Below are positions 28,308 to 64,000 of a DNA stretch of 64,000 nucleotides, in pieces (position 1 is the stretch's first letter; each line of letters opens with the position of its first letter). The translations under genes and the position numbers were made by a program. The stretch is from assembly GCA_964630305.1 (NCBI GenBank), contig CAZVTR010000005.1, positions 7,153 through 71,152 on the forward strand, given 5' to 3'. Source of the stretch: an uncultured Treponemataceae bacterium. GTDB lineage: Bacteria; Spirochaetota; Spirochaetia; Treponematales; UBA12059. The notes beneath the pieces are model-generated. The model was not told the origin of the DNA and did no database searches. It saw only the letters and a list, made by a program, of their open reading frames with translations.

Positions 28308-30104
28308 TCATAGTCTTTCATAATAGTTTTTGATTTTTAATGAAATGAGCTTTCTTCTTTCTTTTAGAAATTCATCGTAATGTTCGATTGTTTTGTTTTC
28401 CATACCGTCAGGTATACAATGCATTTGAAAATTTTCTTTCATTTCATCAATATCTGTTATTGCTCCATATGATGAAATGCCTTTTTTACAATTATGAAGT
28501 AGTTCAGAAAAATATTCAGAAGGAGCTCTGTCTTTTATTGCAATATTGATTTCACTTTGCATCATAACATAATTTGCAATTTGGTTATATTTGTTTTTAG
28601 AAAGACCATGTTTCTTTAAATAATTTTTGGGAAACAGGTGATGAACATCTCCACGATGGGTAATTAAGTCTCTAACAGTTATATCACGAGATAAAAAACC
28701 ATTATCGTTAGATTTGACCTGTGCAGCTAGGTAAACGCTAAAGTATGGACTTGATGCAACTGAAGTATCCATTTGTTGTGGCAAACCAGCATTCCAAAAT
28801 GCATCAGATAATTGAGACTGTTCAACATCAATTATATAATTTTCTATTCCAATTTCGCTTATCCTGCGGACATCAAGATCAATTTGAGATTCAGGAGAAC
28901 CTGAATACCTTCCAGTAAGAATAGACATTACAAGCCATTTTCTAACAAATGTTTCAACTTTATTTGAATTTATCTTTTCAGAGACTAGTAAAAGATATAG
29001 TATATATGCAAAGTTTAGAGCGTTTTGTGACCTAATCATGCCTGGATCAATAAAACCAGCAGAACGAACAATCATTAAAAATCTTTTAAAATTAGTTTCA
29101 TTCATAAATTTTAATATTCCAGTTTTAAGCATTTTAAATGAGTTTTCTGCAATATATTCTTCATATGTTCGTGTTTCGAAGTTTCTTCCAGACAATAATG
29201 CTACAAGATCTTCTAGGCGTCCACGTTTAAATTCTGAAGTGAACGATACTCTGAGCATATCTGTATAGGAAGGATCATAGAGATCATCATTTTCATCTTT
29301 TAACCAAGCCATTTTATTGAAATAATCTGTTTTTGCGAATTCAGGATCTAATTCAATAATTTGCTGGTAAAATTCAGGAGCTACCGCTAAGTGGCAAAAA
29401 TAATCTATAATTTTCCTGATTGTATGTCCGCCATATATTTCGTTTGCAGCAATTTTTGACATTGCAAAATCTGCTTGACTTAGGACAACTCCTTGAGAAT
29501 TTATTCGAATAAAAATATCAGTAACTGTTTCAATATCAAGTTCAGAATTTAATTCAATAAGACCAATTGGGTTGTTAACAATAGATTTTAATAATTCAAG
29601 ACTCTCATAAATATCATCTGGCTTTGTGTCTGGATTAAGTTGGCAATAGTCCTGAACTAGCTTTAGCATTTTTACTTCTGGGGATATTATTAAGGATATA
29701 TCAGCAATCCACGCATTGTCTTTTTGAATAGCAGGGTTGGAAACTTCAAATCTTCTTTCTTTAGGATTAAATGCTATAATGATCCGTGTTTTCTCATAAT
29801 CACTATTAATAATTTGTGCTCCAAGCAATGAAGCCATTAACGCGGTGACTCTCTGTTGTCCATCTATTAAAATTCTTTTTCCTTGAGATAATGTGCCATC
29901 TTTTAGTCTAATTGATGGATTTCGCCATGCTATTAAATAGCCAATTGGATACCCTTGATAGAGACTGTCAATTAAATCACGAACCTTTGTATTGTTCCAT
30001 ACAAATGGTCTTTGTATTTCAGGAATTGCTATCTCACCAGAATTGATCCAGCTAAGAATAGTTTGAATAGGGTGCTGATTAACAGAATATTTTTGTATGC
30101 TCAT
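28308..30104 (-). CDS. DUF262 (ParB/Srx-like NTPase) + C-terminal His-Me-finger nuclease protein; GmrSD-like type IV restriction/defence candidate
   Basis: N-terminal [10 protein letters not shown]...[12 protein letters not shown]...[11 protein letters not shown] (DUF262 hallmarks). C-terminal [16 protein letters not shown]...N...(DUF1524/HNH-like). The DNA is strongly AT-rich relative to both flanks. GGAGC lies 6 nt upstream of the ATG. Confidence 0.8.
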
Positions 30105-52457: not shown

Positions 52458-55379
52458 ATGAAAAAATCTAAAGTACTCAATGTGCTCATTATTGTTGGGT
52501 TTGTAGTACTCGGTCTTTTGAGCTGTGTTGGCACACAGGCTAAAGGCAGTGATGCAGCTCAGGTTCAGAGTGAAGAAGTGCAGCAAACGCCAATTGCGGT
52601 TACAGAAGTAAAGCAAAAGTATGATCCCTATCAGGCAATGCCAGATGATTTGCTGCCGCTTGCTCCTGAGCTCACAAAAGGTGTTTTTGATAATGGGATC
52701 ACCTATTATGTAAGAAAAAATGGCAATCCTGCTAAGCGTGCTGTCATGTATTTAGTCGTTAAAGCGGGTTCTGTGCATGAAACCGATGAAGAACGTGGCT
52801 ATGCACATTTTGTTGAGCACATGGCATTTAATGGCACAGCATCCTTTCCGGAGAACCAGTTGGTAGACTATTTTAGATCAATTGGTATGGAATTTGGTGC
52901 AGAAGTCAATGCGTATACATCATTTGATAGAACTGTTTACATGATAAAAATGCCGCTTGATAAGCTTACGTTTTATCAGAAGGGGTTGCAGATTCTCAAG
53001 GAGTTTGCGCTTGATATTACATTTGATCCTATTGAAGTAGAAAAAGAGAAAGGCGTTATCCTTGAAGAAATGCGGCTCGATAAAGGCAGCAGGGAGCGCG
53101 CAAGCAATAAGGAACTAGAAGCCATGCTCGGCGGAACGCCCTATGCAAACCGCAGTCCCATAGGAACAGAGGCATCTATTAGGAATGCTACAGCCGAAAA
53201 ACTCAAAGCGTTTTATACAAAACACTATACGCTGAATAGGATGGCAATTATTGTGGTTGCGGATCAAACGCCAGCCTACATGATACGTTCAGTTAATGAG
53301 GTATTTGAAAAACTTCCTGCTCAGCCTCAAGCTTTAACTAATTTTGTTTATAAAATTGACAGTATTCCTGATCTTAAATACTCGATAAGCACTGATGATG
53401 ATTTTGGTATGGCAACAGTAGGGTATGAACAGATAACTCCGCTTAAGCCAGAAAAAACACTCCGCGATTATAATAATTTTGTTATTCGCAATCTTACTGA
53501 ACAGGCAATTAATTTCCGGCTCAATGCATTAATAAATAGCGGCAAAGCCAATTGGGAAGATGCCTATTTTGGCACTGACTATTTCTTTGGCCAAACACGT
53601 TCACTCGATCTTGTTATGCGGGCAAAAGCCGGTAAGGAATTAGAAGCTTTTAAAATGCTCATGGAAGAGATTGAGCGGCTAAAACAGAATGGGTTTACTG
53701 TGGGCGAATTTAACCGCGCTATTTCCAGCCACAGAGCATGGGTAAAGACGCTCGATGTAGAAGATATGGATCTAAAGAGCGATGATTTTGCAGAAGAGTA
53801 TACCCGCAATTTTATGTATGATGAACCAGTGCCTGGTGTTACCAATGAGCGTGTGTATATTACTAATGTGCTCAATACGCTGACACTCGATATGCTTAAT
53901 AACTACATGCGGGAGATGCTTAAGGATTTTACTAAAGGCTTTATTTATGTACGAACAAAACCGCAATTTGTATCGCTTAAACAGGAAGATTTTGCAAAGC
54001 TTATCGCTGGAGCAATCAGCAAAAAGTATGAACCCTTTGTTTCAACTGAAAAAGAGATAGGTTTATACGATAATTTATTGCCTCCTGGGAAAATAACAGC
54101 AGAAGAAACATTTTATAATGATTTTACTAAACTGGTGTTAGCTAATGGCGCTGTAGTATATGTAAAACCTACAAGCTTTGATAAGGATGCTGTAAAAGTA
54201 TTTGCTTTTGCGCAGGGCGGGTACTATGCGTTACCAGAACAGGATGTTATGCCTGCCCGGTTGTTAAGTTTCCTTATGAATGCTGCTGGTTACAGTGATA
54301 TTTCTGCAGATAAACTTAATGAACTTCTCGCTCCTTATCGTGTCAGCTTAAAATGGAATGTCGATAGCACAAGCCAGTATCTTGTTGGGGAAACTAAAAC
54401 CAATGATGTTGAACCGCTCTTGCGGCTCATTTCGCTCTTGCAGGCAAGCCCGGGCAAGGATATTGCAAACTTTAATCGGAATAAACAGCGGCTTTTTGAT
54501 GAAATTGAAAGCATACAGGAAGATCCTGAGTATCGCTTTAGAAATGACTGGCAAAAAGTGCTTTATGGCAGTTCTGAGTATGTTAAAGGTTTTGGAGTTA
54601 ACGAATTTGACGCAATTACGTATGCTCAGTGTGCAGAATTAATGAAAAAGCTCTTTGGCAATGCCGGCAAGTTTACCTACGTTATTGTTGGCGATGTAAC
54701 AATGGATAGCTTGAAACCTCTGCTCGAAAAACATATTGGTTCTTTGCCCGGAAAACCAGATTCAAGCAGGGTTGTCTGGAAAGAACCAAAACCACAAAAA
54801 CCAACACAGCAGAAATACATATTTAACTATGCCAAAGAAAATAAAGCCGATGTGCTGCTTTATTTTACAGGACCAATACAATATACCTGGGAAACAGAGC
54901 AAAAATTTGAAATTCTCAAAGCCTCTCTGAATAATAGGCTTCTCGATAGAATACGAGAGGAACTGAGCGGCACCTATGTAATAAGCTGTGATGGTTCAGT
55001 AGAAGTACTTCCTACACCGCAGTATAGCTTTATTATACAATTCAGTACCGATCCGGCACGTGTTGATGATCTCATCGCTGCTGTCCGCCGTGAAATTGAT
55101 GCATATGTTTCGGGTAATTTTGATGATAAATATGTCAAACAGATAGCTTCTCAGCTCAGCCGGACTACAGGATACATATATACCAATGATTTCTGGCTTT
55201 GGTATACTGGCCTTACACTGCTTAATGGCATTGATGACTTTTCGTTTGTACAACAGTGGTCATTACGTTCTGTGTTGGCAACCAAAGAAAATATTCAGCA
55301 GATGGCGGAAAAGGTATTTAATACTGAGTATCAGTATGTATTTGTGTTACAGCCGCCTGCAGCAACAGAGCAAAAATAA
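52458..55379 (+). CDS. M16-family (pitrilysin-like) zinc peptidase, probable lipoprotein, 973 aa
   Basis: HFVEHMAFNG (inverted HxxEH zinc motif). Double M16 active/inactive module length. N-terminal LGLLSC lipobox. Confidence 0.85.
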   Translation: MKKSKVLNVLIIVGFVVLGLLSCVGTQAKGSDAAQVQSEEVQQTPIAVTEVKQKYDPYQAMPDDLLPLAPELTKGVFDNGITYYVRKNGNPAKRAVMYLVVKAGSVHETDEERGYAHFVEHMAFNGTASFPENQLVDYFRSIGMEFGAEVNAYTSFDRTVYMIKMPLDKLTFYQKGLQILKEFALDITFDPIEVEKEKGVILEEMRLDKGSRERASNKELEAMLGGTPYANRSPIGTEASIRNATAEKLKAFYTKHYTLNRMAIIVVADQTPAYMIRSVNEVFEKLPAQPQALTNFVYKIDSIPDLKYSISTDDDFGMATVGYEQITPLKPEKTLRDYNNFVIRNLTEQAINFRLNALINSGKANWEDAYFGTDYFFGQTRSLDLVMRAKAGKELEAFKMLMEEIERLKQNGFTVGEFNRAISSHRAWVKTLDVEDMDLKSDDFAEEYTRNFMYDEPVPGVTNERVYITNVLNTLTLDMLNNYMREMLKDFTKGFIYVRTKPQFVSLKQEDFAKLIAGAISKKYEPFVSTEKEIGLYDNLLPPGKITAEETFYNDFTKLVLANGAVVYVKPTSFDKDAVKVFAFAQGGYYALPEQDVMPARLLSFLMNAAGYSDISADKLNELLAPYRVSLKWNVDSTSQYLVGETKTNDVEPLLRLISLLQASPGKDIANFNRNKQRLFDEIESIQEDPEYRFRNDWQKVLYGSSEYVKGFGVNEFDAITYAQCAELMKKLFGNAGKFTYVIVGDVTMDSLKPLLEKHIGSLPGKPDSSRVVWKEPKPQKPTQQKYIFNYAKENKADVLLYFTGPIQYTWETEQKFEILKASLNNRLLDRIREELSGTYVISCDGSVEVLPTPQYSFIIQFSTDPARVDDLIAAVRREIDAYVSGNFDDKYVKQIASQLSRTTGYIYTNDFWLWYTGLTLLNGIDDFSFVQQWSLRSVLATKENIQQMAEKVFNTEYQYVFVLQPPAATEQK

Positions 55380-55394
55380 AACGAGGAACTGCGT

Positions 55395-55931
55395 ATGGAA
55401 TGGTATACGACATGGGTGAGAGAAAATATCATCCTTTCTTCATTTATACAATTTTTTATACTTGGTACGGTCGGCGAAATCCTCGGGATGGTAATTGCGC
55501 GGAAACAAGTCTCTGCTAATGTGGTTGAATGGCTGTTTAAGGCTGTGGTCTGGGGACTCTTGGGTATTCTCATCAAATATGCGTTTAAAGGGTACACGGG
55601 CTTTATAAACATCCTTGTGGAATATAATTTACTCCCGGCGGTCGTTGGTCCGAATTCAAATATCGCACTGCTCAGAGCTTTTGCGCTTTCATTTGTGATG
55701 AATGCTCAGTTTGGACCAGTTCTTATGTTTTTGCATCGTACTACTGACAATATCATTATGCGGACTAAAGGTTATGCTGGAATCGATAGAAGTTTTTGGA
55801 CATTGCTCTGGTTCTGGCTCCCGGCCCATACCCTGACATTTTCACTTCCCGCTGATTATCAGATTGGTGTTGCAGCACTGCTTTCGGTAGCGCTTGGAAT
55901 AATCATGGGGTATACTAAGCGCAAAAGCTAG
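55395..55931 (+). CDS. integral membrane protein, unknown function
   Basis: 178 aa with about four transmembrane segments. ACGAGGAA SD-like sequence upstream. Confidence 0.6.
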   Translation: MEWYTTWVRENIILSSFIQFFILGTVGEILGMVIARKQVSANVVEWLFKAVVWGLLGILIKYAFKGYTGFINILVEYNLLPAVVGPNSNIALLRAFALSFVMNAQFGPVLMFLHRTTDNIIMRTKGYAGIDRSFWTLLWFWLPAHTLTFSLPADYQIGVAALLSVALGIIMGYTKRKS

Positions 55932-56001
55932 TGTTTGTCTGAGTAGCCTACAAGCAATCAGTGTTTACAGTGCTGATTGGTGGTGCAATGAAGCATTATG
56001 A

Positions 56002-56032
56002 AGCCGCTCGTGAGGGGCGGCTTTTTGTTTTT
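56002..56032 (+). terminator. rho-independent terminator
   Basis: AGCCGC-tcgtgagg-GCGGCT followed by TTTTGTTTTT. Confidence 0.8.
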
Positions 56033-56104
56033 ATGCATGATGGAGTGATTTTTTTCTGCTTATGTACAGACAAAACTATATATTTTTAGCGCAAATTGTA
56101 AAAA

Positions 56105-56120
56105 TGGCATAAATTTTGCT
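56105..56120 (+). promoter_or_regulatory. sigma-54 (-24/-12) promoter TGGCATaaattTTGCT upstream of iadA
   Basis: It matches TGGCACG-N4-TTGCW with exact GG-to-GC spacing (GG at 56106-07, GC at 56118-19). It lies 56 nt upstream of the iadA ATG, and a sigma-54 activator is encoded next door. Confidence 0.7.
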
Positions 56121-56175
56121 TATAAATATTTCAAGTGAATAACCAAATTATGAGTCTGAGACAGGAGTAAATACT

Positions 56176-57357
56176 ATGCTGGTAATAAAAAATGCACAAG
56201 CTTTTACACCAGATAATGCAGGCGTAGTAGATATACTTATTGCTGGCAGCCAAATTGTGTTTATAGGTACAAATCTGGCAATTCCTGAGAGTCTTGTTAC
56301 GGCAACTATCGATGCCAAAGGACTATATGCGGTGCCAGGTTTTATTGATGGCCATGTCCATACGATAGGAGGCGGCGGAGAAGGCGGATTTGCAACACGG
56401 ACTCCGGAGCTTCAGGCGGGCACGGCGTTTACCTATGGTGTGACTACAGTAATTGGCGTACTCGGAACAGATGGAATAGCTCGTTCAATGGAGACTTTAG
56501 TTGCAAAAACCTATGGCCTCAGAGCAGAAGGCTTATCGGCATATTGCCTCTCGGGCTCATACCGTGTTCCGCTTACCACGCTTACTGGAGAACTGGTTCG
56601 CGATATTATGTTTATTGAGCCTGTGTTAGGCGCAGGGGAAATAGCAATAGGCGACCATCGATCAAGCTGGCCAGCTGATGACGAACTTACAAGAATAATT
56701 GCCGATGCCCGTCTCGGCGGCATCCTTTCCGGCAAAGCTGGTATAGTAAACATTCATCTTGGCGATGATACTCGTGGGTTTATGCAATTAGAACGCATTT
56801 TTGCTAATGTGAGCATACCTCGCCAGCAAGTATTACCGACACACTGCAATCGTTCACCTGAAGTTTTTAAACAGGCGCTGGCATGGAGCAGGGGAGGTGG
56901 TTGCATCGATTTTACTGCAACAGAAACGAATGATCAGCTTTCTGCCGCAGAGGCTCTGACGGAATACTTCAAGACTCTGCATACTGAAGCATCGCATCGG
57001 GATAAGCCTGGTAGTGTACCAGGTAGAGTGACTATTACGAGTGATGCGCAGGGGAGTTTGCCTCGGTTTAATGAACAGGGCGAGTGCATTGGGCTCGATG
57101 TCGGAACGAATAGGGCTTTATTAAAAGCAGTTCAGAAAGCAGTGTTAGACTATGACCTTTCGCTTGATTTTGTGCTCAAAGCAGTAACGAGTACACCTGC
57201 AATGCTGTATAAACTCAATCGTAAGGGTAGGCTCAAAGAAGGTATGGATGCCGATATTGTATTGTTAGATGACAAGCTCAATGTCGTTACGGTTATTGCA
57301 AATGGTACGATTGTTGTAGAAAACGGAGTGCTAATAAAAAAAGGTACGTTTGAATAA
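56176..57357 (+). CDS. iadA: isoaspartyl (beta-aspartyl) dipeptidase
   Basis: GFIDGHVHTIGGGGEGGFATRTPE is the IadA hallmark. Amidohydrolase fold of 393 aa. CAGGAG lies 8 nt upstream. Confidence 0.88.
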   Translation: MLVIKNAQAFTPDNAGVVDILIAGSQIVFIGTNLAIPESLVTATIDAKGLYAVPGFIDGHVHTIGGGGEGGFATRTPELQAGTAFTYGVTTVIGVLGTDGIARSMETLVAKTYGLRAEGLSAYCLSGSYRVPLTTLTGELVRDIMFIEPVLGAGEIAIGDHRSSWPADDELTRIIADARLGGILSGKAGIVNIHLGDDTRGFMQLERIFANVSIPRQQVLPTHCNRSPEVFKQALAWSRGGGCIDFTATETNDQLSAAEALTEYFKTLHTEASHRDKPGSVPGRVTITSDAQGSLPRFNEQGECIGLDVGTNRALLKAVQKAVLDYDLSLDFVLKAVTSTPAMLYKLNRKGRLKEGMDADIVLLDDKLNVVTVIANGTIVVENGVLIKKGTFE

Positions 57358-57560
57358 TATGATTTAATACAGCAATTTCTATACAGTTTATGACTGCGGA
57401 GCTATGTAATGGAGAACTTCATGCCGGTTTGTAGTTTTAAGCATCTGGGACTACAATAAAAGTTGTGCTTGATACTGTGATTGGATGCAGTAAAACAAAA
57501 TTCTGCTGATAAGTAGTGCAATCACGAAAATCTAAGTCGGAATATAAGTGTGGATTGTAT

Positions 57561-59708
57561 ATGAGAACTGTTTGGATAATTGGAGGTAGTGAGCGGACAT
57601 CACGGGTACTTGCCGAGCAGGTACAGTCCTATGTGCAAGACAGAGCATCTGTCATGAGCGCATCGGTAGATGCTGTCATGCCTGTATGGAAACCAGATGA
57701 TATTATTGTAGTCTCAAGTTCTTTGATTATAGGCAACCTTGCTGATATTGGCATTACGGTTCCAGAGGAACAGCTTATTATTGGCCGGAGAACCGTTAAT
57801 CCTGATAAGCTGGAAAGTGTAGTCGCACTTCCTCCAGGAACCAATGTTGTATTTATTAACGATACACAGGAGACAACCGAGGCATGTGTGCAATCGTTAC
57901 TGGAGCTCGGTATCAACCATGTAAATTGGCACACCTGGTACCCCGGCTTAGATGTATTTCCCGAAAAATGCATGATCGCGGTTGTAGCAGGAGAACCTCA
58001 GCTTGTTCCTGCTCATATCACAGAGATAATCGATATTCATGTTCGTATTTTTGATTTTGGAACCATAGCAGAAATTTTGCAGCGCTTACAGATTCCCTAT
58101 GAGGATATTACGACATTTTCACAGCGGTACCTAGCAAAAATTGTCAGTTTGGCCCGTAACCTTGCCCGTAAAAGCGAAGAAGCACAGCGTTTATCTCAGC
58201 ATCTTGCTTCAGTTATCGACAGTTTGAGCCATGGAGTCCTAGTATACGATGAATATGGCAGAGTAAGTGTTTGCAATGAAGAGGTGCGCTCATTGCTTGC
58301 ACTTCGTCCCACACAGGGCGTCGGGGACACTCTTCCTCAGCTTGTACGGAATAGAGAATTGCTCGAATTTCTCGAGTGCAGGTGCGGGGAAGAAGAACGC
58401 GTGTTTAAGCTTGCATCGGGATCGGTTGTGGTGCATCGGTTTGATTTACAGGAAGATGCGCACACGGTTGCTGTATTTAAATCAGAGCAAAATGAAACCG
58501 AACAGTTTAAGCTTGGCAAAGAGTACCGAAAGCGCGGCCATGTAGCAAAATATACCTTTGATGACATCATAGGTACCAGTGAACTCATACTTAATGCAAA
58601 GCGGATCGCATCAAAACTTGCAGAGACTGATTTGTCAATTCTCATTCAGGGAGAAACAGGGACAGGCAAGGAACTTTTTGCTTCTGCCATTCATTCAGCA
58701 AGTTCGCGTGCGCGCGGACCCTTTCTGGCAGTAGACCTTGGCAGTCTTTCCGATGAACTTATCGAGAGCGAACTCTTTGGTTATGAAGAGGGGGCTTTCA
58801 CCGGGGCACGCAAGGGCGGTAAGCCGGGGCTGTTTGAATTAGCGCATGGAGGGACACTCTTTCTTGATGAAATAGGGAATATTTCTGGCAAGGTGCAGAC
58901 ACGTCTGTTGCGGGTGCTTCAGGAAAAAGAGCTTATGCGTGTGGGCGGCAGTGATATTATGCGCGTTGATGTGCGCGTTATAGCTGCAACGAATGAAAAC
59001 TTGCTTGAGAAAGCGCGCGCGGGACTTTTCCGAGAGGATTTAATTTTTAGATTGCGGATGGGGTGGCTCCGTATCCCGCCGCTCCGCGAACGAGTCGAAG
59101 ATATTCCAGCGCTCGTTGAATATTTTATGCGGCAGGAAGGAGCAACTGGCATAACAGTTTCGCAAGAAGTTTTGGATTTCTTTGCAAAGCATGACTGGCC
59201 GGGGAATGTGCGGGAATTGAGGAATTTATTGACGTATATGCTTGCTGTACGTGAAGGGCCAGTATTGCGGGCAGAAGATATTCCTGCTTTTCCTGATATA
59301 TATACTGATGCATCTAGTGTACATACCTGCAGTGATGCACAAACAACTAATATCGATGGCACAAGACATTTAGAAAAAAACAAACTTGTCTCAGGCAAAC
59401 AGCCGCATCACATTGGTTCCGGGGGATTTATAACACTCGAAGAAGAAGATACACGGGTTTTGGAAGCAATTGCCTATCTTGAAACGGCAGGTCAGAGTAC
59501 AGGGCGTGAAAGCATATCGGGGTATCTCCATACACGGGGCATTTATCTGGGGCCAGGTTCCGTGCGCGCTGCTTTTGCTCGGCTTGCTGCGAGAAAGCTC
59601 GTTACAACACCGAGAGGACGGCGCGGGACTCAACTAACGCGTGAGGGGTGGGTAGTGGTGCAGCAGCGTTCTCCAGAATTAGCTCGCCGGCTCGGTCACG
59701 GTGCATAG
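57561..59708 (+). CDS. sigma-54-dependent transcriptional activator (bEBP) with N-terminal sensory region, PAS-like segment and atypical winged-helix-like C-terminus
   Basis: AAA+ core: GETGTGKELFA (Walker A), EEGAFTGA (GAFTGA loop), GTLFLDEIG (Walker B) and WPGNVRELRN. The C-terminus lacks the usual Fis-type HTH. The start is uncertain (ATG 57561 versus GTG 57516). Confidence 0.88.
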   Translation: MRTVWIIGGSERTSRVLAEQVQSYVQDRASVMSASVDAVMPVWKPDDIIVVSSSLIIGNLADIGITVPEEQLIIGRRTVNPDKLESVVALPPGTNVVFINDTQETTEACVQSLLELGINHVNWHTWYPGLDVFPEKCMIAVVAGEPQLVPAHITEIIDIHVRIFDFGTIAEILQRLQIPYEDITTFSQRYLAKIVSLARNLARKSEEAQRLSQHLASVIDSLSHGVLVYDEYGRVSVCNEEVRSLLALRPTQGVGDTLPQLVRNRELLEFLECRCGEEERVFKLASGSVVVHRFDLQEDAHTVAVFKSEQNETEQFKLGKEYRKRGHVAKYTFDDIIGTSELILNAKRIASKLAETDLSILIQGETGTGKELFASAIHSASSRARGPFLAVDLGSLSDELIESELFGYEEGAFTGARKGGKPGLFELAHGGTLFLDEIGNISGKVQTRLLRVLQEKELMRVGGSDIMRVDVRVIAATNENLLEKARAGLFREDLIFRLRMGWLRIPPLRERVEDIPALVEYFMRQEGATGITVSQEVLDFFAKHDWPGNVRELRNLLTYMLAVREGPVLRAEDIPAFPDIYTDASSVHTCSDAQTTNIDGTRHLEKNKLVSGKQPHHIGSGGFITLEEEDTRVLEAIAYLETAGQSTGRESISGYLHTRGIYLGPGSVRAAFARLAARKLVTTPRGRRGTQLTREGWVVVQQRSPELARRLGHGA

Positions 59709-59796
59709 TGTGGACTATATTAGGTAATTAAATAGGATAAATAGGTTTTTTAATTGGTTATTTAGGTTATTTAGGTGAAGGACTTGAGCAGGCAGC

Positions 59797-59832
59797 AACA
59801 GCTTGCGAAAACCTAACAGCTTGCGGAAACCT
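59797..59832 (+). repeat. tandem 18-bp direct repeat AACAGCTTGCG(A/G)AAACCT x2 in the activator/cyanophycinase intergenic region
   Basis: The copies at 59797..59814 and 59815..59832 differ at one position. They lie 30 nt upstream of the ATG at 59862. Confidence 0.85.
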
Positions 59833-59861
59833 GACACCCAGAAAGGAGTAATAGAACTTAT

Positions 59862-61151
59862 ATGGAAGGCAAGTTAATCATTGCTGGAGGTAATATCTCG
59901 CTCGCAGAGAAAGAAATATTTGAAACATTTGTAAAGGCCGGAATTGAGTGTCGTGATTCCACACGAAGCGGGGGAGATGCTCACGCTCACATGTTTGTAT
60001 TGGTGCCGAGTGCATCAGAAAACCCGGAAAAAAGTTATGCTTATTTTAAAGAGGTATTACTAAATCTCGGAATACCTGAAGCTTCTCTAGCCTGCGCGAA
60101 AGTCTCGGTGCGAAAAAAGGGTTGGGAACGGGGTGCATGGGAACCTGAGCAGATAAAACTGGCAGAACAAGCAGTGGGATTCTGGATTTCTGGAGGGGAT
60201 CAAAATGCAATTATGGACGCGCTTCAGGATGGACATGGCAGGGACAGTCCCTTTTTGGAAATAATGCGTACGCGAAATGCTCAAGGAGCAGTGATTGGCG
60301 GCACAAGCGCTGGCGCTGCAATTATGAGTAACCCGATGATTGGCGGCGGAACGAGTTTTGGCGCACTTGCTCTGCCTGAAGCCCTAAAGCCTGCGGATAC
60401 TGAAATTTCCGATGCGCTCTATGTGAGACAGGGGCTTGGTTTTTTTTCTCGTGGAATAGTAGACCAGCATTTTGATGTGAGGGCTCGAACTGCACGACTG
60501 CTCCGGGCGGTGAGTCTTGATCCGCAGCGGCGCACCTGGGGTTTTGGCATAGCAGAGGATACGGCTATGGTCTGGGACCCCGATAGTGCAGTCCTCAAGG
60601 TGATTGGCAGTGCGGGTGTCTATGTATTTGATACTCGTGACGCCCGCTGGCAAAAGAGTATGAACCGATATGGAGTGACTGATGTTGTTCTGCACTATTT
60701 AACGCGCGGGGACAGCCTCAATCTTGCAGCGCTTTCCTGCAATTTTGAAAATAAACAGATGCTTGAATTTGGCAAGGAGTATTATAAGCTTTCTCGGCCT
60801 TCAGCAAGTGGGGTCTTATCGCCGTATGCCAATTTGGCCAATTTTATTAGCAATTTGCTCATCGATAATGCCTGGGATGCACTTTTTAGCGATGAGGCAG
60901 TGCCAGGTATTGCACATCAGTCGCATAATAATACAGGTACGCAGCCAGTAAGAACAGCTGTAAATAAGGTTGCGAGTGCGACAGAGGAATGGCGTCATGC
61001 AAAAAGTTTTCTAATAGGGTTTGATGCAAATGGTGAGCGGCTTGAATGGGAAATACGCTGCAAGCGTTCTCAGGAGCATACAAGAGGGTATACAGCGGGG
61101 TCTGGTGTTGTCTCATTTGAAAATGTACGGCTGGATATTATTCCAAGGTAA
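59862..61151 (+). CDS. cyanophycinase-family (peptidase S51) protein, 429 aa, no signal peptide
   Basis: KLIIAGGN N-terminus, nucleophile elbow IGGTSAGAAIMS, and QHF..R...RL as in cyanophycinases. There is a C-terminal extension of roughly 150 aa. Confidence 0.8.
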   Translation: MEGKLIIAGGNISLAEKEIFETFVKAGIECRDSTRSGGDAHAHMFVLVPSASENPEKSYAYFKEVLLNLGIPEASLACAKVSVRKKGWERGAWEPEQIKLAEQAVGFWISGGDQNAIMDALQDGHGRDSPFLEIMRTRNAQGAVIGGTSAGAAIMSNPMIGGGTSFGALALPEALKPADTEISDALYVRQGLGFFSRGIVDQHFDVRARTARLLRAVSLDPQRRTWGFGIAEDTAMVWDPDSAVLKVIGSAGVYVFDTRDARWQKSMNRYGVTDVVLHYLTRGDSLNLAALSCNFENKQMLEFGKEYYKLSRPSASGVLSPYANLANFISNLLIDNAWDALFSDEAVPGIAHQSHNNTGTQPVRTAVNKVASATEEWRHAKSFLIGFDANGERLEWEIRCKRSQEHTRGYTAGSGVVSFENVRLDIIPR

Positions 61152-61180
61152 GAAAATATTTGCTTTGCGTAATTAGTTTT

Positions 61181-61196
61181 TGGTACGCTTTTTGCT
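61181..61196 (+). promoter_or_regulatory. sigma-54 (-24/-12) promoter TGGTACGctttTTGCT upstream of the ABC binding-protein gene
   Basis: Exact consensus spacing (GG at 61182-83, GC at 61194-95) with one mismatch in the -24 element. It lies 40 nt upstream of the ATG at 61236. Confidence 0.7.
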
Positions 61197-61235
61197 AATA
61201 GAAGAAATAAGAATTTTTAGTTAGGAGGATGTGTA

Positions 61236-63113
61236 ATGAAACATCGCATTATGGTTTTAATCGTTGCTCTGTCTATGGCAGTCTTTGCTGCCGCTCAGAG
61301 TAGCGACAGATACCGCATTACCTATGAGACGGAACCAAAAACGCTTAACTATTTTTACCTCATTGATAATACGAGTCAGCGTGTAGCCGCTAACACGCAG
61401 GATCATTTAGTAGAGAATGATCGGTTTGGCCGTTTTGTTCCCGCTCTTGCAGAACGGTGGACCACCAATGAAAATGCAACAGTGTGGACGTTCTATCTCC
61501 GCAAGGGAGTAAAATGGGTCGATCACAACGGCAAGGTGACAGAGTATGAAGTAACTGCAGATGACTTTTATGAAGGTTTCCGGTATGTTTCGGATCCCAA
61601 AAACGGTATTAAAAACTTTGGCTCTATTCGTTCACTCCTGGTAGGATTGGCTGATTACTATAAGGGACTCCAGGATGTTGATTCTGGCAAAGATAAAAAC
61701 CGAACTCGACAGCAGGTGCTCGATACATTCAAAAATGTTGGTATTCGGGTTATCGATAAATACACCATTGAGTATACAACTGCAAAACCAACGCCATGGT
61801 TCCTGACCTATCTCACCATGGATCTCTTTTTCCCGGTTGAAAAAGCCTTTATGGATAAGGTTGGAGCAGAAAACTTTGGTACCGCAAAAGATAAGCTTAT
61901 CTTCTCAGGCTGTTACTATATTTCCGACTGGCAGCGCGATAAGCTCATCGTGCTCAAACGCAATGAGAACTACTGGGATAAAAAGAATGTTTTTATTCGA
62001 GAAATAACCATGCAAAAAGTATCTGATCCTGCAATTGCGCTGCAGATGTTCCAGCGCGGAGAGCTTTCCAGTGCCGGTCTTAACGCAGATCAGGTAAAAG
62101 GGCTTCAAAATACAAAATGGAAAGATTATATTTATATGACAGACCGTTCATCGGTGACTTTCTGGTGGGCGCTTAATTTCCAATCAAAGAATCCAGAGTT
62201 TGCAGCCTTTGTAAAAAATATTAATTTTAGAAAAGCATTGTACTATGGCATTGATCATGTGAAATTACTTACACTTGATGATCCTTTGAATCCGCAAAAT
62301 CTATTGCGAACAACGATAATTCCTGAAGATGTTATCTTTGATGAAAAAGGAAAAGATTATACCGATTATCCTGGACTTAGAGAGTTCAAGAATGCTGGGA
62401 ATACATTCAATCCAAAGCTTGCAAAAGAATATTTTATGAAAGCGGTCGCCGAACTTACCGATGGCAAAGGAAATATTAAAGGCGTAGCTGCACAAGCTGT
62501 TGACCTAAAACCAGTTGCACAATTCAATATCGATGGTAAGCTCCCGCTTCAGATTCTGCTAATTCACTCGACGAGTTCCTCTGATACTAAATTTGCTCTG
62601 CTCATGCAGGCGATGTTTAAAGAAGTGTTTGGACCGGAAAATGTTGAGGTTGTTCTGGGTCAATATGTGGACGACCAATACGACGAAGTAATTGCGCCTC
62701 AGAAATTTGATATGGCCTATGACAGTTTCCGCTTTGCTTATGGTGATCCGCTTGCCCAGCTTGGCCGATTAATAACTGGCGGTGCTGTCAATGATGGCGG
62801 ATGGTCAGACCCGGAATTTGATGCGCTTGTTGCAGAGGCTGATAAAAAGATTAAACTCTCTGAGCGGTATGCTCTTTTTGCAAAAGCAGAAGCGATGATA
62901 TTGGACCGTGCATATATTATTCCATTCCGCTGCGGTGGCAGTGCATATGCAATTGGTAATGTTGTTCCCTATACGTACCCGCGAAGCGGTTTTGGAGTAA
63001 CACGATTTAAGTATAAAGGTATGAAGCTTGAGAGTAAACCTCTGCTTGCTTCACGTGTCGAAGAAATTCGCAAACAGTTCTATGCTGATCTTGAAAAACT
63101 GCAAGGTAAGTAA
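61236..63113 (+). CDS. ABC transporter substrate-binding protein, family 5 (oligo/dipeptide-binding, OppA/DppA-like)
   Basis: Signal peptide MKHRIMVLIVALSMAVFAAAQ. ...PALAERWTTNENATVWTFYLRKGVKWVDHNG is typical of SBP family 5. 625 aa. AGGAGG lies 7 nt upstream. Confidence 0.85.
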   Translation: MKHRIMVLIVALSMAVFAAAQSSDRYRITYETEPKTLNYFYLIDNTSQRVAANTQDHLVENDRFGRFVPALAERWTTNENATVWTFYLRKGVKWVDHNGKVTEYEVTADDFYEGFRYVSDPKNGIKNFGSIRSLLVGLADYYKGLQDVDSGKDKNRTRQQVLDTFKNVGIRVIDKYTIEYTTAKPTPWFLTYLTMDLFFPVEKAFMDKVGAENFGTAKDKLIFSGCYYISDWQRDKLIVLKRNENYWDKKNVFIREITMQKVSDPAIALQMFQRGELSSAGLNADQVKGLQNTKWKDYIYMTDRSSVTFWWALNFQSKNPEFAAFVKNINFRKALYYGIDHVKLLTLDDPLNPQNLLRTTIIPEDVIFDEKGKDYTDYPGLREFKNAGNTFNPKLAKEYFMKAVAELTDGKGNIKGVAAQAVDLKPVAQFNIDGKLPLQILLIHSTSSSDTKFALLMQAMFKEVFGPENVEVVLGQYVDDQYDEVIAPQKFDMAYDSFRFAYGDPLAQLGRLITGGAVNDGGWSDPEFDALVAEADKKIKLSERYALFAKAEAMILDRAYIIPFRCGGSAYAIGNVVPYTYPRSGFGVTRFKYKGMKLESKPLLASRVEEIRKQFYADLEKLQGK

Positions 63114-63147
63114 TCAGACTGTGTTATAAAAATATTATAAGATACAT

Positions 63148-63188
63148 GAGGGACTGCAACAATCGATGTTGGTTTTAGTCAGTCCCTC
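63148..63188 (+). terminator. intercistronic stem-loop (partial terminator/mRNA stabiliser) between binding-protein and permease genes
   Basis: GAGGGACTG-(23 nt, containing an inner CAACA/TGTTG stem)-CAGTCCCTC followed by TATTTATT. Confidence 0.55.
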
Positions 63189-63213
63189 TATTTATTACTG
63201 TGTGGGGGAGTTT

Positions 63214-64000
63214 ATGGGGAAATATATACTGCGCAGATTCTGGCAGTCTATTATAACCGTGCTGATTGTGCTCTTTGTCATGTTCATGCTGCTCCGGCTA
63301 ATGCCTAAAGAGAACTATTTTACACGTGATGATTACATTAATATGACCGAAGAGGATAGAACTGCATACCTCAGGAATTTGGGAGTGCTCGATAATCCGC
63401 TTGTGCAGTTTGTGCGGTTTTTAAGAGGATTTATCACGGGAGATCTAGGAAGATCGATTACTGTGTATCCAAAAACTCCTATAGCAGAAATACTTAAAGA
63501 AAAAATACCATATTCACTGTGGTTTGGTCTTGTATCGGTGTTGCTGAGTGTTATATTAGGTTTTCTTATGGGTATTGGCATGGCCAATAATAAGGATAGA
63601 TTGGGTGACCAGTTAGGTACTATTTATGTCGTAGCAGTACGTGCAATCCCAAGCCTTGTCTATTTATTTTTAATACAAATGTGGGTCACGCATCTTTTTA
63701 ACTTACCTATGGTTTTTTATGAAGATGAACTTGCTTCCTGGATTTTACCTGCAATTTCACTTTCGCTGTCTGGTATTGCCTGGTATGCTATCTGGCTCAG
63801 ACGATTTATGGTAGATGAAGAAAACAAAGATTATATAAAATTTGCTATTGCAAAAGGATTGCCCCGTAAATATGTGATGAGGCGGCATGTGCTTCGTAAT
63901 GCGCTAGTACCGCTTGTACAGTATCTTCCTTCACAAATTCTGCTGACCATTGCTGGTTCGCTTATTATAGAAAGTATTTACTCTATTCCCGGTATGGGAG
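63214..64000 (+). CDS. ABC transporter permease (DppB/OppB-like), N-terminal part; continues beyond the window
   Basis: Manual translation from the ATG at 63214 is open to the window end. It reads MGKYILRRFWQSIITVLIVLFVMFMLLRLMP...GDLGRSI...IPYSLWFGLVSVLLSVILG...FAIAKGLPRKYVMRRHVLRNALVPLV, which includes the EAA-loop-like motif of peptide permeases. It is not in the ORF track because it runs off the edge. Confidence 0.85.
   Translation, partial: MGKYILRRFWQSIITVLIVLFVMFMLLRLMPKENYFTRDDYINMTEEDRTAYLRNLGVLDNPLVQFVRFLRGFITGDLGRSITVYPKTPIAEILKEKIPYSLWFGLVSVLLSVILGFLMGIGMANNKDRLGDQLGTIYVVAVRAIPSLVYLFLIQMWVTHLFNLPMVFYEDELASWILPAISLSLSGIAWYAIWLRRFMVDEENKDYIKFAIAKGLPRKYVMRRHVLRNALVPLVQYLPSQILLTIAGSLIIESIYSIPGMG

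Follow-up and report, generated by a model that had tools for sequence, protein, structure and literature searches.

How does a bacterium switch on the genes with which it takes up and degrades beta-aspartyl peptides? The question is raised by a locus near the end of a 64-kb stretch of DNA from an uncultured Treponemataceae bacterium (contig CAZVTR010000005.1), referred to below as the window. The unit comprises eight genes on one strand (+), in the order iadA-bEBP-S51-SBP-permease-permease-ATPase-ATPase, i.e., an isoaspartyl dipeptidase, a bacterial enhancer-binding protein (bEBP, the activator of sigma-54 promoters), an S51 cyanophycinase-family peptidase, and a peptide importer that begins with its binding protein (SBP). 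The reading favored here, with a probability of roughly 0.7, is that these genes form a catabolic unit for beta-aspartyl peptide uptake and breakdown that is controlled by its own sigma-54 bEBP, with an array of half-sites between the bEBP and S51 genes acting as a remote enhancer (Table 1). A first inspection of the letters alone (the sequence-only reading) had already claimed sigma-54/bEBP control of a beta-aspartyl and cyanophycin-peptide locus, and this has held up well: the promoters are conserved and the bEBP is accompanied by iadA, by a transporter and, in some genomes, by a cyanophycinase.

The identities of the genes are given by family models. IadA scores 416.4 bits against the TIGR01975 equivalog (cutoff 331.25), with residues 2 to 393 of 393 covered. 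The S51 peptidase reaches 164.1 bits with the TIGR02069 cyanophycinase model (cutoff 126.6) and 29.6 with Peptidase_S51 (cutoff 23.9). The bEBP open reading frame opens at 57516, and the ATG at 57561 is the likelier start, in agreement with a public 715-residue call (P0145) and with the N termini of orthologues. The genes past the window edge were read from L173, a contig with 100% identity to the window along 8.6 kb; it encodes BPD_transp_1 twice (one permease with OppC_N) and ABC_tran plus oligo_HPY twice, followed by a convergent gene. With these last four genes the Opp/Dpp-type importer is complete, having a binding protein, two permeases, and two ATPases. The five products claimed from the sequence alone (IadA, bEBP, S51 peptidase, binding protein, and permease, all on one strand) are therefore in agreement with family models and motifs, and the domain scan matched Amidohydro, Sigma54_activat, Peptidase_S51, SBP_bac_5 and, from L173, BPD_transp_1. 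Cyanophycinase, iadA, and transporter are clustered within 8 kb on the same strand.

Related loci were gathered through the S51 protein and the bEBP, the spirochaete loci by exact-protein look-ups, and 11 spirochaete loci were compared. When genome and metagenome collections were scanned with the S51 alignment, the matches listed were for the most part distant S51 proteins, and the species of the window was not among them. The eight-gene order is kept in every one of them that is long enough to show it, and it stays strict across S51 identities of 83% down to 37% and GC contents between 43 and 72%. As a separate observation, conservation is uneven along the unit: in L081, L083, and L085, compared with 56176-63113 of the window, the binding protein is 92 to 95% identical, S51 67 to 83%, and IadA 67%, which suggests either that the binding protein is under very strong constraint or that it was exchanged recently.

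Searching for sigma-54 promoters gives the first part of the answer. The pattern TGGYAY-N5-TTGCW, in which GG and GC stand exactly 10 nucleotides apart, has exactly two matches on both strands of the 64 kb, where 0.56 would be expected. One, PiadA (TGGCATAAATTTTGCT), lies 55 nucleotides before iadA, and the other, PSBP (TGGTACGCTTTTTGCT), lies 39 nucleotides before the binding-protein gene; both are on the coding strand in 5' intergenic DNA. From the background rate, the chance that both matches fall within 100 nucleotides upstream of these two genes is estimated at ~2e-7. In 11 of 11 spirochaete loci, TGGTAYG-N4-TTGC follows the S51 stop codon directly, and TGGCAY-N5-(T/C)TGC is found directly before iadA in all seven loci that cover this region and additionally in L176 (the other carriers of a PiadA-type element include L081, L001, L003, L168, L169, and L172). 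Both promoters are kept at a genome GC of 43 to 72% while the flanking spacer sequence diverges. In a position weight matrix (PWM) scan, PSBP and PiadA are the two best matches in each locus covering both (16.6 to 23.3 bits, the next being at most 14), and PSBP is the top match in most spirochaete loci and within the top two in all, a ranking that is partly circular since the matrix was built from these same promoter sites. No sigma-70-like site was seen on the + strand of the three 5' spacers, and the count over the whole region is at chance level. The two -24/-12 elements proposed at the outset are thus confirmed, their positions being conserved in every related spirochaete locus examined, and the sigma-54 reading of the locus appears well supported and would extend beyond this organism. 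No RpoN-box peptide is encoded in the 64-kb window; RpoN occurs in other spirochaetes, e.g., Borrelia (PMC3037356).

Other candidate promoters were also considered. A third sigma-54 promoter, for S51 (GGCAGCAACAGCTTGC), was rejected, its spacing being 12 nucleotides and not 10. Inside the 3' end of iadA, at 57303-57318, lies a sigma-54-like sequence, TGGTACGATTGTTGTA (14 bits; -12 element GT, not GC). It is followed by a gap of 203 nucleotides between iadA and the bEBP gene (57358-57560) that is missing in relatives, where the two genes abut or overlap. The sequence may mean nothing, or it may give the activator gene a weak promoter of its own. In GC-rich relatives, PSBP is followed by 5' leaders of ~95 to 130 nucleotides (L170 2866-2945; L172 7208-7291) that share hairpins (GGGGC-TTGCCCC; CGGCACCGTCCG...CCGG) absent from the 30-nucleotide leader of the window; in that subclade, these hairpins may add a further control at the RNA level.

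The activator itself had been called non-standard, and its architecture bears this out. From the N terminus, it is composed of an alpha/beta domain (residues ~1-180) with a long helix, a PAS domain, an AAA+ domain with the GAFTGA loop, a lid, a low-complexity linker of ~50 residues, and a C-terminal winged helix. PF00158 (Sigma54_activat) is matched at 1e-61 and AAA_lid_14 at 3.5e-18, the PAS match is weak, and the motifs GETGTGKE, LFLDEIG, and EEGAFTGA are present and invariant in the bEBP alignment. The N-terminal ~215 residues give a confident alpha/beta model with a long helix (predicted local distance difference test score, pLDDT, 84). They match no Pfam family and, by phmmer and a 12-sequence profile, no sequence in the PDB; Foldseek against the PDB returned weak two-lobed alpha/beta matches with a template-modeling (TM) score of at most 0.34. 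At the other end, HTH_8 gives no match even at E<=10. A Fis-type helix-turn-helix is typical of the bEBP family but is not obligatory. In its place, the C-terminal ~90 residues are modeled as a winged helix (pLDDT 86) that matches the DNA-binding domains of HrcA, DtxR/MntR, PadR, MarR, and CggR (probability 1.0, TM 0.55 to 0.64), and the C terminus of Bacillota orthologues matches PF08461 above its cutoff. The best named relative is PrdR (NF041552; 312 bits against a cutoff of 795, with the match starting at model position 127). An assignment as PrdR was rejected because the score is below the equivalog cutoff and the N-terminal domain is unmatched.

The regulator is also found outside the spirochaetes. 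When the window proteins were compared with all fetched loci by tblastn, the full-length activator, including its N-terminal 340 residues, recurred in Bacillota. Here, orthologous bEBPs (39 to 60% identity, 78 to 98% coverage) have iadA and a transporter as neighbors, in some cases S51 as well, and sigma-54 promoters lie beside these genes. Carriers of the bEBP include Bacillus, Gottfriedia, Neobacillus, Paenibacillus, Fusibacter, Brevibacillus, Fictibacillus, Thermohalobacter, Peptostreptococcaceae, and Tissierellaceae. Fictibacillus, Thermohalobacter, and a GC-rich metagenome contig (L176) have the bEBP, iadA, and a DcuC-family transporter without S51; judging from these loci, the constant core appears to be activator, iadA, and transporter, with the cyanophycinase being an addition in some lineages. 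Two features of these loci can be noted in passing. In L176 (10321-13210), an MR_MLE gene (enolase superfamily, dipeptide-epimerase-like) comes after the DcuC-type transporter gene with its sigma-54 promoter, an arrangement that hints at D/L-isomer handling of dipeptides in some versions of the regulon. In Thermohalobacter berrensis (L175 5480-5700), tandem repeats of ~38 to 40 nucleotides around AAGTAACGG(A/T)C lie upstream of iadA.

Where the activator might bind is suggested by the array of six same-orientation half-sites. Its GG pairs are found at 59723, 59735, 59744, 59756, 59765, and 59774, i.e., at a mean spacing of 10.2 bp, and a half-site PWM refined on the 11 spirochaete arrays has the consensus WAAWWGGYTW (TAATTGGTTA). 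An AT-rich array is kept at the bEBP/S51 junction in 11 of 11 spirochaete loci. In GC-rich relatives, the arrays combine two or three half-sites in forward with two to four in reverse orientation, the array of L171 being a perfect 17-bp inverted repeat, and in GC-rich loci the array accounts for 3/3, 4/4, 6/6, and 6/7 of all strong motif matches in 8 to 21 kb. As an independent test, this spirochaete-derived matrix was applied to Bacillota, where it finds 24 sites between -150 and -30 of 14 sigma-54 promoters against 3.2 expected (Poisson p ~1e-13). The promoters in question adjoin the gene of the orthologous activator and are preceded by the half-sites at 56 to 139 bp, and a control set of six unrelated sigma-54 promoters from the same Bacillota loci yielded a single half-site match. 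In L176, too, the array precedes the promoter of the transporter gene, by ~135 to 85 bp, and the Fictibacillus layout is alike. With 24 sites against 3.2 at these promoters and one at unrelated ones, the motif is probably the enhancer of this bEBP family, read by the conserved winged helix.

Two other activator sites had been proposed, and neither survives comparison. CAATCAG-N11-CTGATTG (55955-55979) is present only in the window and the identical L173 and is absent from the syntenic L081. The second, ACGCTGCAAGCGT (61055-61067), is a by-product of R-C-K-R codons and is broken in L085; its arms follow codon choice, and the underlying R-C-K-R peptide motif is absent from more distant relatives. 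The array was considered as an RNA element as well. Its spacer folds no better than shuffled sequence (z = -0.61) and has no Rfam match at E<=1, and the palindrome of the GC-rich relatives is replaced by direct repeats in the window, so that sequence and not pairing is conserved; an RNA reading is unlikely. A generic repeat finder did not detect the array, which is too degenerate. Between the array and the S51 start (59797-59832), there is an 18-nucleotide tandem duplication, AACAGCTTGCG(A/G)AAACCT, that is absent in L081, L083, and L085. Single strong half-sites occur at 56140-56149 (-; AATTTGGTTA), just downstream of PiadA, and at 61012-61021 (+; TAATAGGGTT), inside the S51 coding sequence and 169 bp upstream of PSBP. 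Both are unconserved in the other ten loci and are probably due to chance, but they could be weak auxiliary sites.

The substrate of the unit can be approached through the S51 peptidase. The protein was aligned to the Synechocystis CphB structure 3EN0 (residues 34-265, 72 bits; low identity). S149, H203, and E232 correspond to the catalytic triad of CphB, and Q114, D201, Q202, R207, R209, and R212 to its pocket residues Gln101, Asp172, Gln173, Arg178, Arg180, and Arg183, which mutagenesis showed to be critical for cyanophycinase activity (PMC3235067). Triad and pocket residues are invariant or at least 90% conserved in the S51 alignment. The S51 fold, the Ser-His-Glu triad, and the arginine-rich pocket are thus shared with CphB and CphE, and CphB has a Gln beside the catalytic His as does the enzyme here, which is ~150 residues longer than CphB. 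In size it resembles CphE of Pseudomonas anguilliseptica/P. alcaligenes (PMC3235067), with which it shares a length of ~420 residues and a C-terminal extension (~140 residues), and it differs from CphE in having no Sec signal peptide. None is recognizable by eye, and the start, MEGKLIIAGG, enters the first beta-strand directly. All spirochaete S51 orthologues are without a leader; the Caloramator protein P0105 has a leader peptide.

Taken together, these elements can be arranged into a circuit. Transcription from PiadA would cover iadA and the activator gene and would read through into the cyanophycinase gene, and PSBP would drive the genes of the Opp/Dpp-type importer. The imported substrate would most plausibly be soluble cyanophycin fragments, e.g., (beta-Asp-Arg/Lys)n. 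Once imported, these peptides would be cut at their alpha-bonds by the cytoplasmic cyanophycinase to give beta-Asp-X dipeptides, which IadA would split into free amino acids. Ligand sensing is presumably carried out by the N-terminal alpha/beta domain and PAS of the bEBP. The bEBP would bind arrays of four to six WAAWWGGYTW half-sites about one helical turn apart, a number and spacing that would suit assembly of the active hexamer on DNA, and from the single array it would activate both PSBP and PiadA by long-range DNA looping. As the activator gene lies inside the PiadA unit, we propose that the circuit is positively autoregulated. What the sequences show directly are the gene families, the promoter motifs and the array with their conservation, and the domain folds; the substrate, the inducer, binding of the array by the bEBP, action at a distance, and read-through into S51 are deduced from these.

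The geometry of such an arrangement would be unlike that of the classical systems. In the window, 1.43 kb separate the array from PSBP, which lies downstream of it, and 3.65 kb separate it from PiadA, which lies upstream; across the spirochaete clade, the distances are 1.22 to 1.43 kb, with the whole S51 gene in between, and 3.3 to 3.7 kb. In this clade iadA is without an array of its own, and in several loci a terminator or upstream gene abuts PiadA and therefore leaves no room for a proximal enhancer. L176 has the order iadA - bEBP - array - promoter - transporter, and comparison with it suggests that insertion of the S51 gene parted the enhancer array from its promoter. A fuller scenario can be built on this, which we put forward tentatively. 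The ancestor would have had the order iadA-bEBP-[array-promoter]-transporter, as in L176 and Thermohalobacter; after insertion of S51, one array would serve both promoters over kilobases and in both directions, and the bEBP would carry a new sensor domain for beta-aspartyl dipeptides. The split layout retained by the clade would then have PSBP activated from 1.2 to 1.4 kb upstream and PiadA from 3.3 to 3.7 kb downstream, with some six half-sites for the winged helix all facing the same side of the DNA, each perhaps taken by one subunit of the hexamer. Classical NtrC/NifA enhancers are alike in having multiple activator sites upstream of a -24/-12 promoter that act by looping. Their natural sites are normally 80 to 200 bp upstream, are inverted repeats, and are bound by a Fis-type helix-turn-helix, whereas here (in this clade) there would be a single intra-operon direct-repeat array, a whole gene away from one promoter and downstream of the other. 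Reitzer and Magasanik are said to have found in 1986 that NtrC sites moved kilobases away still work experimentally.

Care must be taken with this reading, as several points weigh against it. Half-site matches in the window taken alone are at chance level (73 versus 73 in shuffles), and its cluster of three strong matches is equalled by 3 of 20 shuffles; because of this, the case for the array is built wholly on comparison with other loci. In 10 of the 11 spirochaete loci, there is no strong motif site within 320 bp upstream of either promoter, so that an enhancer would have to act over 1.2 to 3.7 kb, a reach seldom seen in natural systems; the bEBP may instead activate the promoters from solution. 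With regard to the substrate, a cytoplasmic cyanophycinase has no access to insoluble cyanophycin outside the cell; together with the Opp-type importer, its location argues for soluble cyanophycin oligomers or dipeptides, and not the polymer, as the import. The core of the family is iadA plus transporter, S51 being missing in several genomes, and the inducing signal may be generic isoaspartyl dipeptides. The claim of a complete route for scavenging cyanophycin therefore stands in part: cyanophycinase, iadA, and importer are indeed clustered, but as worded it is doubtful for an S51 enzyme without a signal peptide.

The first alternative, which we regard as unlikely, accepts the promoters as real and denies that the array is their enhancer, the bEBP acting from solution or via weak proximal sites. 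On this view, the array would have a local role at the junction, such as autoregulation, a roadblock gating read-through into S51, or control of an unrecognised S51 promoter. Neither promoter has conserved motif sites nearby, and in the window there are single sites at 56140 and 61012. The array also abuts the S51 ribosome-binding site in L169, L172, L001, and L003. Some bEBPs, e.g., Rrp2 of Borrelia and FlgR of Helicobacter, work without binding DNA. Enhancer function is nevertheless favored by the occurrence of the same motif at classical enhancer distance in Bacillota and L176. A local promoter for S51 finds little to work with: within 250 bp of any spirochaete array, the sigma-54 PWM scan gave nothing above 6.3 bits, compared with 16.6 to 23.3 bits for the real promoters, and the array spacer has no sigma-70-like site on the + strand. 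Without a promoter adjacent to it, the array has been kept over deep divergence.

A second alternative, also doubtful, concerns what the unit is for. The locus could handle generic isoaspartyl peptides arising from protein ageing or peptide turnover, the S51 enzyme being a broader or different Asp-specific peptidase. This would fit the constant partners of the bEBP, iadA and a transporter, the absence of S51 in Fictibacillus, Thermohalobacter, and L176, and the missing signal peptide; in addition, IadA enzymes are promiscuous (PMC10206079), and the dipeptidase PepE belongs to the S51 family too (PMC3235067). On the other hand, the peptidase scores above the cyanophycinase equivalog cutoff and keeps the catalytic triad and all six mutagenesis-critical CphB pocket residues, and cyanophycinase, iadA, and transporter without cphA is the published signature of cyanophycin scavenging (PMC10206079).

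It is improbable that the peptidase mobilizes the cell's own cyanophycin in the manner of CphB, with cphA elsewhere in the genome and an unrelated or secondary importer. The enzyme is cytoplasmic and its Q202 is the equivalent of the CphB-type Gln173, and the search for cphA covered the 64-kb window only. Set against this, cphA1 and cyanophycinase are clustered in 81% of genomes having both, and cyanophycinase-iadA clusters typify genomes without cphA1 (PMC10206079); moreover, the importer is strictly co-conserved and has a promoter of the same kind throughout the spirochaete loci, and the peptidase has CphE-type length and a C-terminal extension. Least credible of all is that the -24/-12 matches are due to chance and the genes use ordinary sigma-70 promoters: at least two matches occur in 11 of 100 shuffles, so that two versus 0.56 expected is not rare alone, but the position and strand of the matches are exactly as required, a bEBP is co-encoded, the spacers lack a sigma-70-like site, and the comparative data (11/11 and 7/7 loci, amid diverging spacers at 43 to 72% GC) effectively refute this reading already.

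How much of the unit favored here, i.e., the sigma-54-controlled one for beta-aspartyl peptides, is new? Clusters of cyanophycinase, iadA, and transporter without cphA1 have been described (Ben Hania et al. 2017, cited in Sharon and Schmeing 2023, PMC10206079). No cphA-sized open reading frame was found in the 64-kb window when all four open reading frames above 700 residues were scanned (those of an M16 peptidase, a SIS/GATase protein, a DUF4015 protein, and the bEBP), so the claimed lack of cphA stands; it had been presented as an oddity, and it is the published norm for such clusters (PMC10206079). The cyanophycin utilization locus, as outlined in the accessible part of the latter source, has the same gene trio with no cphA1 nearby, from which use of cyanophycin made by others was inferred; it is reported from Bacteroidetes and RefSeq genomes with secreted enzymes and amino-acid-type transporters, and that part describes no regulator. 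The locus in the window differs from this account in its peptidase without a signal peptide, its five-component Opp/Dpp system, and its in-operon sigma-54 activator. Another relative is the aot operon of P. aeruginosa with CphZ/AotO (PMC9974463), in which importer, dipeptidase, and activator are also co-encoded and growth on beta-Asp-Arg occurs without cyanophycin synthesis. The aot operon uses the M14 enzyme CphZ, an amino-acid ABC system, and ArgR, an AraC-type activator, in contrast to the amidohydrolase IadA with S51, the oligopeptide ABC system, and the sigma-54 bEBP here. Among regulators, PrdR and other bEBPs of Firmicutes amino-acid catabolism share the core of PAS, AAA+ (GAFTGA), and lid, and the PrdR gene likewise adjoins the catabolic operon to be activated (Nie et al. 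2019, PMC6615313). Unlike PrdR, the present bEBP has an N-terminal 215 residues unrelated to any Pfam or PDB entry, a winged helix that is not of Fis type, and WAAWWGGYTW arrays as its proposed site, not TGT-N10-12-ACA.

In the openly searchable literature, which leaves most subscription journals outside, no report was found that links cyanophycinase or isoaspartyl dipeptidase to sigma-54, in line with the expectation of the sequence-only reading that such control was not known as described. Surveys of sigma-54 regulons, including the supplement of one of them, make no mention of either enzyme, and no account was found of how such clusters are switched on. The gene set is thus of a known kind; what appears to be new is the subfamily of the regulator, the motif it would bind, and the layout in which enhancer and promoters are split apart.

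Cyanophycin and isoaspartyl peptides are widespread nitrogen-rich resources, and with a dedicated activator conserved in both Spirochaetota and Bacillota, the signal that induces their use, which may be beta-Asp-Arg, becomes open to experiment. The activator would serve as a genome marker for such regulons and could become a biosensor for cyanophycin breakdown products. For sigma-54 biology, it offers an uncharacterised sensor domain and a winged helix that would read half-site arrays in variable orientation. If the proposal is true, the gene-separated enhancer of this clade would be a natural experiment on the reach of bacterial enhancers, and a natural, conserved case of long-range, bidirectional enhancer action in bacteria.

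Table 1 Features of the proposed beta-aspartyl peptide locus and its surroundings (positions in the window).
Feature	Position	Strand	Remarks
Intrinsic terminator of upstream 178-residue membrane-protein gene	56000..56034	+	10-bp stem, 6 GC pairs, then T-run
Sigma-54 promoter PiadA	56105..56120	+	-24/-12 match; predicted start ~56130
iadA, isoaspartyl (beta-aspartyl) dipeptidase, 393 residues	56176..57357	+	Contains HVHTIGGGGEGGFATRTPE; Amidohydro_1/3 domains
bEBP (sigma-54 activator), 715 residues	57561..59708	+	Sigma54_activat + GAFTGA
Array of six same-orientation half-sites WAAWWGGYTW, candidate upstream activating sequence of bEBP	59718..59778	+	Between bEBP and S51 genes
S51 cyanophycinase-family peptidase, 429 residues	59862..61151	+	GGTSAGAAIMS; TIGR02069
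Sigma-54 promoter PSBP	61181..61196	+	-24/-12 match; predicted start ~61207
Family-5 (OppA/DppA-type) periplasmic peptide-binding protein, 625 residues, N-terminal signal peptide	61236..63113	+	SBP_bac_5, 8e-54
First permease (DppB/OppB type), truncated by window end	63214..64000	+	Second permease and two ATPases follow in L173

The terminator that precedes PiadA has an equivalent hairpin in L081 and L003 and would insulate iadA from upstream transcription. Within the unit, a stem-loop, GAGGGACTG...CAGTCCCTC, is found at 63148-63188, past the binding-protein stop (63113) and before the ATG of the permease gene (63214). As an attenuator within the operon or as a stabilizer of mRNA, it could favor an excess of binding-protein message. 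One public gene call begins the permease at 63166, within this hairpin, and the ATG at 63214, after a G-rich GGGGGAG, looks more likely as the start.

Directly upstream of the locus (52458-55931), a secreted 973-residue M16 (insulinase-type) peptidase and the 178-residue membrane protein, which has no family match, are encoded. Both are syntenic in L081, the terminator divides them from iadA, and an operon link is not apparent. The remainder of the window is ordinary chromosome. At 28308-30104 (- strand), a 598-residue protein with a GmrSD_N restriction-endonuclease domain coincides with the lowest-GC stretch of the window (0.347 versus ~0.43) and may be a horizontally acquired defence gene.

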